A DNA stretch of 64,000 nucleotides from Escherichia coli. Lineage in GTDB: Bacteria; Pseudomonadota; Gammaproteobacteria; Enterobacterales; Enterobacteriaceae. The position numbers were made by a program. Positions 32,176-38,100 of this stretch are shown here, piece by piece; the first letter of the stretch is position 1, and each line of letters starts with the position of its first letter. Location: the NCBI RefSeq assembly GCF_003790525.1, contig NZ_CP033635.1; one strand, given 5' to 3'.

Positions 32176-35100
32176 TAGCTATGTGGGTGGCTCATCGCTG
32201 ACGGCATGTATGCGTAACAGAGCATCTGTATCATCCGTTTGACGTTTTCGTCGGCGATCCTGCCAGCTATTCGGACATCTTGTGAAACCCAAAGGCAGCG
32301 GCTGACGAAGCTTATCCGGTATCCTCTCGCAACAAAGGTACATGTACCATCTACTTTTTGGGCGGCCATTGTCGACAGATTCTTAAGTAGAACAGCTAAG
32401 TTTAGATTTAGGAAAAAGTTGTTAAAATCAAGCAAATACTTATCATCATCACTTGATTTCGTAAACGCAAAACTACGATACTATTAACAAATTCTTCTAT
32501 GCATTCTTACCGAATGTTGGCGGTAGCGTGCTTAATCACTCGGATTTAGTATGAAAAAAAATTCTTTAAATGTGATTTTGGATACTGTTTTCTCGGCGAA
32601 AAGCATCAATGGTGAGAAATCTCATTCTTTTATATCGTATAAATTAGTTAAAGCTGTAGAAAATTTAAGTGGATATGACTTGGATCTTTTCCTCAATCGT
32701 GCGATAAACCATCCTAACTTCCCTAGCAATATGGATTTTTCCTTACGAACAGTTTTTACAATTGAACAATCTAACACTATTGAATTTAAAAATTTCATTT
32801 CAGAATTGGTGTGGTACAAGCATATTTTCATACGATATAAAAAACACCTTAATGATATATTATCGGCAAAGGCAAGACTTGAGAAGTTAGTTCTTTTCGC
32901 AACAGGTAGTGAATGTATAAAATATTTAGATGAAATAGAAAGCTCTTATGGAGTTAGTTTTTGGAGCATTGATGCTCGTCTCTTAATAAATAAAGTTTTG
33001 CTTAACGAAAGCAATGGGTTATATGTTAAATCAATTCTATCTAAAACCCACTATAAACTTACAGAGTTTATGTTACAGCAGCTATTATTTAAGCATCAAG
33101 TACATAACTTTGATGATTTTTCAAAGAACCTTATAAAAATACTAGATGATATGCGCACCACTCAAGATAATGGGTATGCTAGAAATTTAGCTGATGGTAT
33201 TTCATCCTTTTTAATACCTTTAGAGTTTGATAAAAATATAGATCTCAAAAATAGAACCTTAGCACCATTTACCAACCTTCCTTTAATAGATCAATTTATC
33301 ATATTCCAGAGAACTATAAGCGATTTACAACTTCATGGAAATGGTTTAAGAAATAGCGAGTTAAGCTTAATTGCAGAAATTAACAGCTTTATTAAAAATA
33401 ACTATCTCAACAATATTTTAGATGGAAGAGAGCGTAATATAGAGAATATTGATGAACACTATAAAAGTGTTATTCGACGTTATACTATAGGTGATTATAC
33501 TGGGTGTATTTCAGAAATAAATTCAGTTCGAACGCAGAAGACAATTTTGCCATTAATTGAAATATATGCAAAATCCCATGTGTATCTTGATAAGAAAATT
33601 TCAGACTCATGCATATTCAATAAATTAACAAACTGGCTTATAGCAATTATAAAATGCGACAGACGCGCTGGAAAATACATCGATGAATTTGAACTTTTAG
33701 CATCTAAGATATATTTCAATTCAAATTCATCCTCTCTATTCTTCACATTATATAATTTAATAAGTGATAACCATAATAAATTAAACATATCTCGTATAAA
33801 TCTAACCAAAAATGGTTCCTTTGTAACATCCCTTCATTTGAATATAACAATCAAGGAACTATGGACTGAACTTGGAATAAAAGAGAATGAGATACCAAAA
33901 TATCGATTATTTAAATTCAAAGACCTAGCAAATCTATCCTTTGATGAAATCAAAAAACACTACGAAGTATACAATGATAATGTAATAATTCGCTCTGAAT
34001 ATTTAAAAGATTATACTAACTTTTTATTAGAAAATGAAAAGTATGAATTATGCATCCAATTTATAGCTGAAAACTGCATCGGCAACCCCGCAAATTATTA
34101 CTACTTCCCAATCCGAAAAATAATTGATTTTGTAAAAGACAATATTTTTGACTATGCAAGCGTGGCCTTATCTATATTGATAGATATTTTTGTCAAAAGC
34201 ACATCAAACACTTCAAATGAGCTTCTTCTCGAAAGTTATGAGAGTTTAGTAGATATTTCAAATATTAATAGGCCATCTACCCATTATTGCTCTAAGCAAT
34301 TAACTCCATTAGAGCACTATTTCCTTAAGTTTATCTGTATACCTTCCGTGATGGATTCAGACCCTTCATTCACAGGCACGGACGACTTGAAGAAGGAAAG
34401 AATTGCTATTATAGATCTATTATTAAAAGAACACGATGATGCAGATTTATTGAAAGAGAAAGACGAAATTATAGATGAAATATCATTCGAAGAAATAAAA
34501 ACAAAATATGAGACAGGAAAAATATTTGTTGATATAGAAAATTTAAAACGGGCAAAGCTTGAAAGATACAGATATTATTTTGATGCACTTAAGGATTCGC
34601 TTATTCTCGGACTAGAACCACCTGAAGACTTTGCTTTAATTACAGACGATGGGAATATCACAGCCATTCCATCTGGCGATACAAACTCTATAATCCATGA
34701 ACTTCTAAAAGAACTAATCTCCGATTTTGTTAAAAATGAAAATTACGGTCTTGATAAATATTTGAGTGCAGATATACGGCATGGTGTTTTTGAAAATCAA
34801 CTCAGATCAAGTGCTGAAAAATCGCAATTAATAACTGATATGGATGGTACTGGACAGTATTCGAAAAGCAATTTAATTATTGAGACATATCCATTAATTA
34901 ACCCTATTATAAATAACGAAATAGGGACAGCAATAGCTGATTTCTCTTATCACTTTGACATTGAATTGGCTAAAGCCAATTCCTGGTTCAATGTCAAGAC
35001 AATGCTCATAAGTGAATCACAGCAAGGTATGATTGATTTCCTCATTTCTGTTGATATGTTTAATTCATTTAAAGCAGCAGTTTCAAATCAAGCATCTTTT

Positions 35101-38100
35101 GAGAAGTTTTTTGACGCTTGTATTAACTTCATGTGGGAAAGAACGTTCAGATGTTTGAATGATATTAAAGAGCGATTGCATTACGAATTTAAGAGGAATA
35201 TTTTAGATTTAATTGCCACTCTTAGGCATCAAATTGATATCTATAGAAGACGTAGTTCCATGAGAGAAATCCAGGAGAAAATTGACCTCTTGGCCGAAAG
35301 CATTAATAAAGAAATTGCAACAGTCTGCGATTGGTTAAATGTACTTGAGTATAACGAGGAGAAAATATATAAAATATCATCCGTGATGCAGGCATGTAGG
35401 AAAACTTTTTTTAATATACACCATTGTTCTGATGATGCTATCGTTTTTGATTCAATGTATCATGATGATGAACCAAAATTATCTTATAAAGAAGCCAAGC
35501 CTCTAATCACATCAATAATAACAGCGTTAAACAATGCTATGGCCTATGGTAATAAAAAAATCTTTATCAGTATTAAGCCTGAAGAAAAGTCATGGAAAAT
35601 AACCATCAGAAATTTGATAATTGAGACAAAGAACAGAACTACCAACCAAATTTTACAAGAGATTGATGATAAAATAAAACGAGGGGATAATAGTCTAAAT
35701 ATAAAAGAAGGCGGAGCTGGAATATATAAAATATATGATTTATTATGTTCATTACCGCAAAGATTTAATGTGAATCATTGCATCCAAAATAACGAATTCA
35801 TTTTAAATATTGAGATAAAGAAATGAAAATTCTTCTTGTTGAGGATATTGAATATAAGCGTGATAAGGTGATCGGTTTACTAGAGTCTATTTCTGCCGAT
35901 GTATCAGTCGATGTAGCTAAATCTTATGTTTCGGCAGTAAATTCCGCAACCAGTAAAACTTATGATCTTATAATATTAGATATGAGCCTTCCCACTTACG
36001 ATAAGGGGCCTAATGAAAATGGAGGTCGCTTCAGAGTGTACGGAGGGAAAGATATTATTCGCAAGTTAATGAGAGGAAAAGAGCATCCAGTAGTTGTGGT
36101 TTTAACACAACATACAACTTTTGGTGAAATTGGTGAGCAAAAAAATACTGACACTCTATCACAAGAGTTGAATGCTTTAATGGGATCAAAATTTATAGGT
36201 ATTGTAAAATATGACTCAACTAAACCTCAATGGAAAGATGAAATAAAAAAAGTCGTACAGGATTTGTTATGATTAAAATATTAATAGTTGATGACAATAA
36301 ATCTAGAATTGAAAAGCTAAAATCTAGCTTAACTGAACTCATCACAAAAAACATGATAAGGATTGATGAGAAATATACAAGTGACGCCGCAAAAATCGCG
36401 CTCAAGTTAAATCAATATGATTATTTAATTCTTGATGTCTTTTTACCTAAAAAAGATAACTATAGCCCAGATGAAAGAAATGGATTAGGTCTTTTAAAAC
36501 AAATAAATTCAGATTCTAAATTTTACTCTCCAAAAAAAATAGTTGGCATAACTGCATATCTGAATGATATATCCAGATATGAATCCGAATTCAGAGAATA
36601 TGCTTCAATTATATTCGAGGCTCGACGTAATGATACTGGATGGCTTGAATCACTCAAAAAAATCATTGAAAAGGATGTTGAATCTCAAGTAAGTTATAAT
36701 CTCAATGAAAAAGATAGTGTTTTAATAACAGTACACGGTATAAGAACCTACGCACCTTGGCAAAATACCATAGAAGAAAAAATAACCAATATATCAAATA
36801 AATTTAACTATATAAAATTCAATTATGGTTTTCTAAATATTCTTTGTTTTTTATTCCCTCCGACTAGACATCTATTTGCAAGAAAAATAATCCAAGACAT
36901 ACGAATTACAGTGGAATCAAATAAGAATAAAAGAATTTATATTATTTGTCATAGTTTTGGTACCTACCTTGTATATTGTGCCTTAAGTAAACTGACACAT
37001 ACGGATGCAAAAATTGAATGTTTAATTTTTTCTGGTAGCGTATTAAAACGTACTACCTCATTGAAAACATTAAAGCAACATTGTAATGCAATAATAAATG
37101 ACTGTGCTGTAAGTGATTATATTTTATTACTATGTAAAATGTTAGTCATTGGCTTGGGCGATGCAGGCAGAAAAGGGTTTATTGAGCCAAATGATGGTGT
37201 TTTCATTAACCGCTATTTTAAAGGAGGACATTCAACTTACTTCGAAGATAAAGATTTCATAGAAGTGAACTGGCTTCCTTTAATTTTTGACAATAAAAAT
37301 ATCGCGTCACGAGATGAAAGAAAAAATCATATTTTTTCCGATGTCACCAATGCTTTGCAAAATATAATTGAATATTTAAAAATACCAATATGGTTATTTT
37401 TTTCTTTTTTATTGATAGCACTGGTATTATAATATCACTGCACATTAAAAATCATATTGGAGCTTCCCTCATAAAGCTCCAATATAAAACACCATCATTT
37501 CAATAGTACCTGCAGCTAATTAAAACTAGTCAACCGAAAAAATTAATCACTTTAAACTTTAGTATGCACTTATACTTTCTTAATAATAGAAAAACACTTA
37601 CAAATAAATTAATCATGTCAATCTCCGTAACTACAACCTCGGAAAGTATGTAAACAGGAATCATTACTGAAAAAAACACGATTTCAGCAGAATTCTAGAA
37701 ATATCCTGTGCTGCTGCCGATACCAACTTTCGTATATACTACCCTTCACGTTCCTTCTCGTTTTTATAAAACTATTCATTTATAACTATCAATAGGCATC
37801 ATAACCAATGTAAGTGTAAGTACTGGTGAACGAGTGTCAATGGAGTTAAAAGTATCACTTCATCCTGCTAAATATAAGTTATCCTACGTTTTAATATACT
37901 AGAACTCAAAATTAGAATGGTTTGTTAATATTAATAGATTTACCATTGATATCTTTTGACACCTTAAAAAAATCTATACCTTTTATCCACTGACATAACT
38001 GTTGTAGTGTTTCCATTGCCTGTTCTAACTCATTTTTTTCAATTCTAACGCCCCCATGATGGCTACAGGAATTTAATAATTCCTGAGCTAGAGTGATGTC

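Follow-up and report, generated by a model that had tools for sequence, protein, structure and literature searches.

A probable Detocs defence operon of the hydrolase plus transmembrane subtype in the thrW island of Escherichia coli

Introduction

Detocs systems, as described by Rousset et al., consist of DtcA (tetratricopeptide repeats [TPRs] and a histidine kinase), DtcB (a free receiver) and DtcC (a receiver fused to an effector) (bioRxiv 10.1101/2023.01.24.525353). Here we describe an operon of the same layout, dtcABC, at positions 32551-37432 (plus strand) of a 64,000-nucleotide stretch of Escherichia coli contig NZ_CP033635.1 (assembly GCF_003790525.1). This whole stretch is referred to as the window, and its numbering is used throughout.

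Purine nucleoside phosphorylase (PNP) effectors are found in about 80% of Detocs operons. In the Vibrio alginolyticus system, defence is abolished by a His-to-Ala substitution in DtcA or an Asp-to-Ala substitution in DtcC, and an Asp-to-Ala substitution in DtcB causes toxicity that depends on the effector (bioRxiv 10.1101/2023.01.24.525353). The same preprint reports that a Detocs-hydrolase of Enterobacter cloacae JD6301, tested as the wild type, shields E. coli from diverse phages (Fig. S8C); it lists the JD6301 homolog as 'Response regulator - a/b hydrolase - TM' (Table S1; TM, transmembrane segment) and records 'Hydrolase + TM' Detocs in E. coli WCE035, O76 and G177 and in Klebsiella, Vibrio, Yersinia and others (Table S5). 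Gut isolates of E. coli have also been reported to carry Detocs at a different locus (PMC11728103).

The operon reported here reveals no new kind of system. Its value for annotation is that it identifies a probable defence system in the thrW island of E. coli beyond the RefSeq labels, and it makes an allele native to E. coli available for work on two questions about Detocs, the signal that DtcA detects and the substrate of the membrane-anchored hydrolase. These questions, like that of the unusual placement of the H-box, concern the whole family.

Operon organization and family assignment

The three genes are as follows.

32551..35826, plus strand: dtcA, 1091 amino acids; predicted cytoplasmic sensor kinase
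35823..36272, plus strand: dtcB, 149 amino acids; stand-alone receiver, proposed phosphate 'buffer'
36269..37432, plus strand: dtcC, 387 amino acids; receiver, alpha/beta hydrolase and hydrophobic tail

ORF calling and reading of the junctions found three co-directional open reading frames (ORFs) where an earlier note, made from the sequence alone, had placed them. The overlaps described in that note were also found: each stop codon is shared with the next start in an ATGA, at 35823-35826 and at 36269-36272. An AGGA Shine-Dalgarno sequence stands 7 nt ahead of the dtcC ATG. RefSeq names the three products only 'hypothetical protein', 'response regulator' and 'alpha/beta hydrolase', respectively. 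An exhaustive homolog search, used in place of a word-indexed search that had returned only two relatives of DtcA, gave 1498 cluster representatives at E<=1e-3, mostly full-length at about 1100 amino acids, and DtcC has 158 homologs of 385-400 amino acids. Because DtcA and DtcC have so many full-length homologs, dtcABC can be taken as genuine genes rather than chance ORFs.

A PADLOC scan, which the earlier note had proposed, matched all three products: DtcA to PDC-M60A (4.5e-55, residues 491-1061), DtcB to PDC-M60B (2e-35) and DtcC to PDC-M60C (1e-22, receiver part only). Since the DtcB and DtcC proteins of the validated JD6301 and V. alginolyticus systems match PDC-M60B and PDC-M60C in the same library, we equate PDC-M60 with Detocs. 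The MacSyFinder rule for Detocs calls for all three genes and tolerates no more than a single foreign gene between them (bioRxiv 10.1101/2023.01.24.525353), and here dtcA, dtcB and dtcC are all present, co-directional and contiguous. The contiguity of the genes, the PADLOC matches and the homology to a tested system described below bear out the note's reading of the gene order (kinase, free receiver, receiver-effector) as that of Detocs.

The JD6301 Detocs-hydrolase has the same three-gene order and the same receiver, alpha/beta hydrolase and C-terminal TM layout of DtcC. Its DtcC is colinear with the one described here (32% identity over 385 amino acids, E 9e-56; 387 amino acids here against 386), and the two have in common an HSFGT nucleophile motif, a GGHS His motif and the phospho-accepting Asp; the two DtcB proteins are 32% identical (E 1e-19). 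The systems differ in that identity in DtcB and DtcC is only about 30-32%, and in that the operon described here lies in the E. coli thrW island. The canonical Detocs of V. alginolyticus UCD-32C follows the same DtcA-DtcB-DtcC logic, and its DtcB aligns with D53 conserved. Its DtcC aligns in the receiver alone (29% identity over 98 amino acids, with D56 corresponding to its D58), whereas the effectors are unrelated: a PNP-like ATP nucleosidase that depletes ATP in V. alginolyticus and a serine alpha/beta hydrolase with a tail here. In keeping with this difference, PDC-M60C spans the full V. alginolyticus DtcC but only the receiver of hydrolase-type DtcC proteins. The earlier note had called the effector non-canonical. 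The membrane serine hydrolase that it recognized stands, but the implied novelty does not, since the subtype was described, and one member validated, in 2023.

Taken together, these findings make it very likely that dtcA-dtcB-dtcC constitute a Detocs operon belonging to the hydrolase + TM subtype, carried as cargo of the thrW integrase island. Within that subtype it is an ordinary but divergent member.

The predicted sensor kinase DtcA

The main features of DtcA are these.

N-terminal ~600 amino acids: variable, putatively helical sensor region; residues ~600-1091: histidine-kinase-like module
34780..34782, plus strand: codon of H744, putative phospho-accepting His in the motif S-A-D-I-R-H-G
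35365..35823, plus strand: predicted catalytic ATP-binding (GHKL/HATPase-like) domain
34750-34830 and 35530-35730: atypical H-box and ATP-domain motifs (DtcA residues ~734-760 and 995-1060)

A HATPase-containing product had been proposed for the first gene, and a histidine-kinase module is indeed supported by the structure model of the DtcA C-terminus, which has a histidine-kinase fold, together with a single invariant His and recognizable N and G2 boxes. The predicted GHKL domain carries an N-box L-N-N-A (N995) and a G2-like box E-G-G-A-G-I-Y-K (G1057/K1060), for which the family consensus is E-G-G-x-G-L-x-K, and an invariant N1021 occupies the expected place of the G1 box. In an alignment of 52 full-length DtcA relatives H744 forms the sole conserved His column (52/52). 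The motif around it in the family, S-x-E-I-R-H-G, resembles the canonical H-box S-H-E-L-R-T-P with the His shifted by +4, or one helical turn. H744 lies 347 amino acids from the C-terminus and H645 of V. alginolyticus DtcA about 333 (for a length of ~978 amino acids estimated from the operon coordinates); judged by this distance, and not by alignment, the two residues would be equivalent.

DtcA is predicted to be cytoplasmic because it has no hydrophobic segment. Conservation is lowest in its first 490 residues (median identity of 17%, against 33% around the H-box), a pattern that fits a diversifying sensor. TPR signals in DtcA are weak: PDB entry 2kck is matched at E 0.069 over profile positions 304-365, and ANAPC3 and TPR_2 are each matched in one of the 52 family members. 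HATPase_c_5 is matched in 2-4 of the 52, and DtcA has no match in PHROGs.

The receiver DtcB and the receiver-hydrolase DtcC

The features of these two proteins, all on the plus strand, are listed below.

35979-35981: DtcB phospho-acceptor D53, with acidic D8 and T95 alongside
36269..36706: DtcC receiver domain, residues 1-146, with D8/D9 and T95
36434-36436: DtcC phospho-acceptor D56
36707..37336: DtcC alpha/beta-hydrolase effector domain, residues ~147-356, with oxyanion H156-G157
36953-36955: DtcC nucleophile S229 in H-S-F-G-T
37115-37117: DtcC D283
37229-37231: DtcC H321
37382..37429: DtcC C-terminal hydrophobic tail I372-L387, a putative membrane anchor that ends helix 357-386

DtcB is a stand-alone receiver, as had been claimed (Pfam Response_reg, 3.7e-7, besides the PADLOC match above), and its D8, D53 and T95 do not vary when it is aligned with the two validated DtcB proteins and two further homologs. 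For DtcC, the structure model confirms the receiver fold and places behind it a predicted alpha/beta hydrolase with an intact S229/D283/H321 triad, which agrees with the receiver-fused hydrolase of the earlier note. Among 48 DtcC homologs (30-63% identity) the residues D56, T95, H156-G157, H228-S229-x-G231, D283 and G319-G320-H321 are all invariant; the ICHSFGT motif picked out in the note is the nucleophile elbow H228-S229-x-G231 of this set. The proposed membrane anchor is likewise predicted, from a Kyte-Doolittle maximum of 2.2-2.3 over the last ~17 residues, a helix at 357-386 in the AlphaFold2 model and the retention of a hydrophobic tail in 46 of the 48 homologs; the tail sequence itself is not conserved. 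The receiver has to reach a kinase in the cytoplasm, and this would put the hydrolase domain on the cytoplasmic side too, anchored at the inner face of the membrane.

Pfam finds no DNA-binding domain in either DtcB or DtcC, and the name 'response regulator transcription factor', which RefSeq gives to some DtcC proteins or split N-terminal fragments, is unsupported by their domain content. A classical regulatory two-component system was considered and excluded, as DtcA has no Pfam HisKA or HATPase_c match and no TM, and the operon has no DNA-binding output.

The minimal alpha/beta hydrolases Bacillus subtilis YdeN (1uxo), Pseudomonas fluorescens carboxylesterase (1auo), human acyl-protein thioesterase 2 (5syn) and lipase Lip_vut1 (6nkc) are 11-13% identical to DtcC and, unlike it, lack both an N-terminal receiver and a membrane tail at the C-terminus. 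What they hydrolyse is a poor guide to the substrate of DtcC. In CBASS systems with the patatin-like phospholipase CapV, an infection signal turns on a lipid- or membrane-directed enzyme and the cell is stopped. The logic proposed for DtcC would be analogous, but fold and family differ, and DtcC would be activated via phosphotransfer whereas CapV responds to a cyclic-nucleotide messenger. A patatin-like (CapV-type) effector is itself excluded, since DtcC has no Pfam patatin match and is a canonical alpha/beta hydrolase with a Ser-Asp-His triad.

Proposed mechanism

Carrying the published Detocs model over to this allele by homology, we infer the following course of events. Cytoplasmic DtcA would sense a phage cue via its variable N-terminal helical region and autophosphorylate on H744 using the GHKL ATP-binding domain. 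The phosphoryl group would then pass to D56 of the DtcC receiver, and the alpha/beta-hydrolase domain (S229/D283/H321) would be released or assembled. With the C-terminal tail keeping the hydrolase at the cytoplasmic face of the inner membrane, an esterase- or lipase-type activity, presumably directed at membrane or lipid, would stop the infected cell, that is, bring about abortive infection. D53 of DtcB would compete for phosphate and so buffer a leaky kinase, and the effector would stay silent in the absence of infection.

A restraining role for DtcB also invites the reading that dtcABC is a selfish addiction or island-stabilising module, in which DtcB would hold a toxic DtcA-DtcC pair in check much as an antitoxin does. 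The effector-dependent toxicity of the DtcB Asp-to-Ala mutant in the studied Detocs (bioRxiv 10.1101/2023.01.24.525353) points in this direction, as does the presence of a CbtA/YeeU toxin-antitoxin pair in the same island. The coupled dtcABC genes would, however, be lost together, there is no sign of differential stability of their products, and protection in the homologous system is phage-specific and depends on both the kinase His and the receiver Asp. We regard such a module as highly improbable, and it would in any case be compatible with a role in defence.

Returning to the Detocs operon, three further points may be put forward together, although we hold their conjunction to be somewhat less probable than its opposite: that DtcC is a phosphorylation-gated inner-membrane lipase or esterase acting from the cytoplasmic side, that this allele sees a different cue than the Enterobacter system does, and that the DtcA family uses an atypical phosphotransfer geometry. 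These are points for the whole family and not for this locus alone.

Distribution, expression and the weight of the evidence

The following features flank the operon.

30909-32122, minus strand: IS3-family insertion element (orfA/orfB, programmed frameshift), ending 430 bp upstream of dtcA
32401..32446, plus strand: two overlapping sigma-70-like promoter candidates from a consensus scan, ~105-150 bp upstream of the dtcA start
37454..37485, unstranded: 12-bp perfect hairpin from a terminator scan, 21 nt after the dtcC stop

As the earlier note had claimed, the operon is AT-rich relative to its surroundings: dtcABC have a GC content of 0.29-0.35, and of 0.21-0.27 at third codon positions (GC3), and the comparison ORFs (the integrase and one flanking core ORF) have a GC content of 0.49-0.54 and a GC3 of 0.48-0.57. 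The promoter candidates are weak evidence, because such sites are no commoner in the region than in shuffled sequence. The hairpin has a predicted folding energy of -15.7 kcal/mol (z -6.95), which none of 200 shuffles equalled in stability. A T-run follows it on the minus strand only, so that it may terminate mainly transcription from the side of orf321, a minus-strand ORF described below.

The 5.2-kb operon segment is present in 16 of 5426 complete E. coli genomes, in every case on the chromosome and at least 99.9% identical. This distribution (0.3% of complete genomes) is sporadic, and the operon always lies within the mobile island. The exact DtcABC proteins are encoded on about 570-800 contigs, Klebsiella among them.

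Several observations weigh against assigning the locus to a working Detocs. The DtcA kinase is invisible to sequence-only methods, with no match in Pfam or NCBIfam, and a profile built from the 52 DtcA proteins gave only sub-threshold hits against PDB sequences (the TPR match at 0.069, the kinase N-box at 0.32 and 0.49). H744 lies ~195 residues upstream of the ATP-binding domain, outside the adjacent helical hairpin, and DtcA is without a D-x-G-x-G G1 box; kinase chemistry would accordingly be assigned from the family and not from canonical motifs. Since the displaced His and the missing G1 box are held across the DtcA alignment, both are traits of the family and not of this locus. The N-terminus of DtcA is nearly unalignable with the first 400 amino acids of JD6301 DtcA (E 2e-4), so the two systems may differ in their phage cue and in which phages they block. 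The allele is only ~30% identical to the experimentally tested Detocs-hydrolase, and we found no paper on the substrate or biochemistry of the hydrolase effector in the literature searched. The DtcC tail, at only 16 uncharged residues, makes a full membrane span uncertain. Finally, expression in the host is uncertain, given the IS3 element 430 bp upstream and the very AT-rich DNA.

This last point bears on the possibility that the operon is a Detocs copy by descent that is silent or decaying, unexpressed or non-functional in its host and hitch-hiking as island cargo. Xenogeneic DNA that H-NS silences in E. coli is typically AT-rich, and the extreme AT-richness of dtcABC would make it a candidate for such silencing; the nearby IS3, a DUF905 pseudogene in the island, the chance frequency of the promoter-like sites and a 1-bp indel that splits dtcC in E. 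coli 23CRST013 could all be read in the same way. Against this, the three ORFs are intact and annotated whole in the reference record, and dtcC was seen split in one of the 16 complete genomes, whose operon segments are nearly identical. Every catalytic and phospho-acceptor residue is retained, ~430 bp of native upstream sequence is left between IS3 and dtcA, and the occurrence of the exact proteins on hundreds of contigs, including those of Klebsiella, also argues against decay. A silent copy is in our view unlikely.

The sporadic distribution bears on a further alternative, a housekeeping two-component pathway in which an environmental signal with no relation to phage would adjust a membrane lipid or ester hydrolase. 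Response regulators with an enzyme output, such as CheB and those of the PleD type, are common in normal signalling, and the RefSeq names are just 'response regulator' and 'alpha/beta hydrolase'. Against such a pathway stand the presence of the operon in 0.3% of complete E. coli genomes and its constant location in a mobile island. Homologous operons, moreover, either have relaxase, integrase and Mrr genes as neighbours or break up core loci; DtcA lacks any sensor segment in the membrane or periplasm; all three proteins match models of defence systems, and anti-phage activity has been shown by experiment for a homolog. We give ordinary signalling very little credence. Each of the three alternatives (silent copy, addiction module and ordinary signalling) is less likely than a Detocs operon.

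Relatives of the operon

Relatives with 63% and 36% identity in DtcA have the same overlapping operon of 1090, 150 and 387 amino acids in unrelated genomic contexts, and one homologous operon adjoins the relaxase, integrase and Mrr genes mentioned above. The 36%-identical dtcABC is found in three metagenome-assembled contigs between two EpmC-family (PF04315) genes, which on one of these contigs have the following positions.

5058-5426 and 11370-11879: EpmC-family genes flanking the 36%-identical operon

It looks as if this cassette was inserted into, or beside, a duplicated core locus.

A Klebsiella quasipneumoniae protein shares 98% identity with DtcC, and exact or near-exact copies of DtcB carry the names Klebsiella michiganensis and 'Enterobacterales'. 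These matches indicate recent horizontal spread of the allele between genera. In E. coli 23CRST013 (NZ_AP045773.1), dtcC is annotated as two coding sequences (99-amino-acid receiver and 173-amino-acid hydrolase fragments) at 10870-12034 of the retrieved locus. The segment there is 1 bp longer, and dtcC thus appears to be inactivated by an indel. The 173-amino-acid fragment also occurs on about 20 other contigs.

The thrW island and neighbouring genes

The earlier note had placed the operon in an integrase-bearing island with toxin-antitoxin and antirestriction genes, and the tRNA, the integrase, the repeats and the RefSeq annotation all bear this out.

28270..40343, unstranded: genomic island with the operon, ~12.05 kb, bounded at both ends by direct repeats
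28270-28292 and 40321-40343: att-like 23-nt direct repeat, 21/23 matches; the right copy lies in the 3' end of tRNA-Thr(CGT)
40327-40402, minus strand: tRNA-Thr(CGT)
38979-40202, minus strand: integrase
37912-38877, minus strand: orf321, an AT-rich orphan ORF (GC 0.33) of 321 amino acids between the integrase and dtcC

From left to right the island comprises the att repeat, the CbtA/YeeU toxin-antitoxin pair, DUF987, a JAB/RadC-like gene, an antirestriction gene, the DUF905 pseudogene, IS3, dtcABC, orf321, the integrase and the second att repeat, with gene names taken from the RefSeq annotation of the 100% identical region of E. coli SMS-3-5 (NC_010498.1). The same island occupies the same site in other strains.

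The product of orf321 has no match in Pfam, PADLOC or NCBIfam, and its homologs, named 'hypothetical protein' (42-76% identity), are spread over Enterobacterales and Aeromonas. Those of Proteus and Serratia are solitary genes flanked by core genes; about 0.8-1 kb of non-coding DNA precedes them, and there is no Detocs in the vicinity. We considered orf321 as a fourth Detocs component and rejected it on the lack of family matches, the solitary homologs and the existence of homologous Detocs operons without it; it is an independent accessory gene of unassigned function.

Finally, the Rfam model of the Hfq-binding small RNA isrC gave a full-length match of 145 bits at 31968-32090 on the minus strand, within the orfA region of IS3, which suggests that the isrC family overlaps IS3-type sequence.

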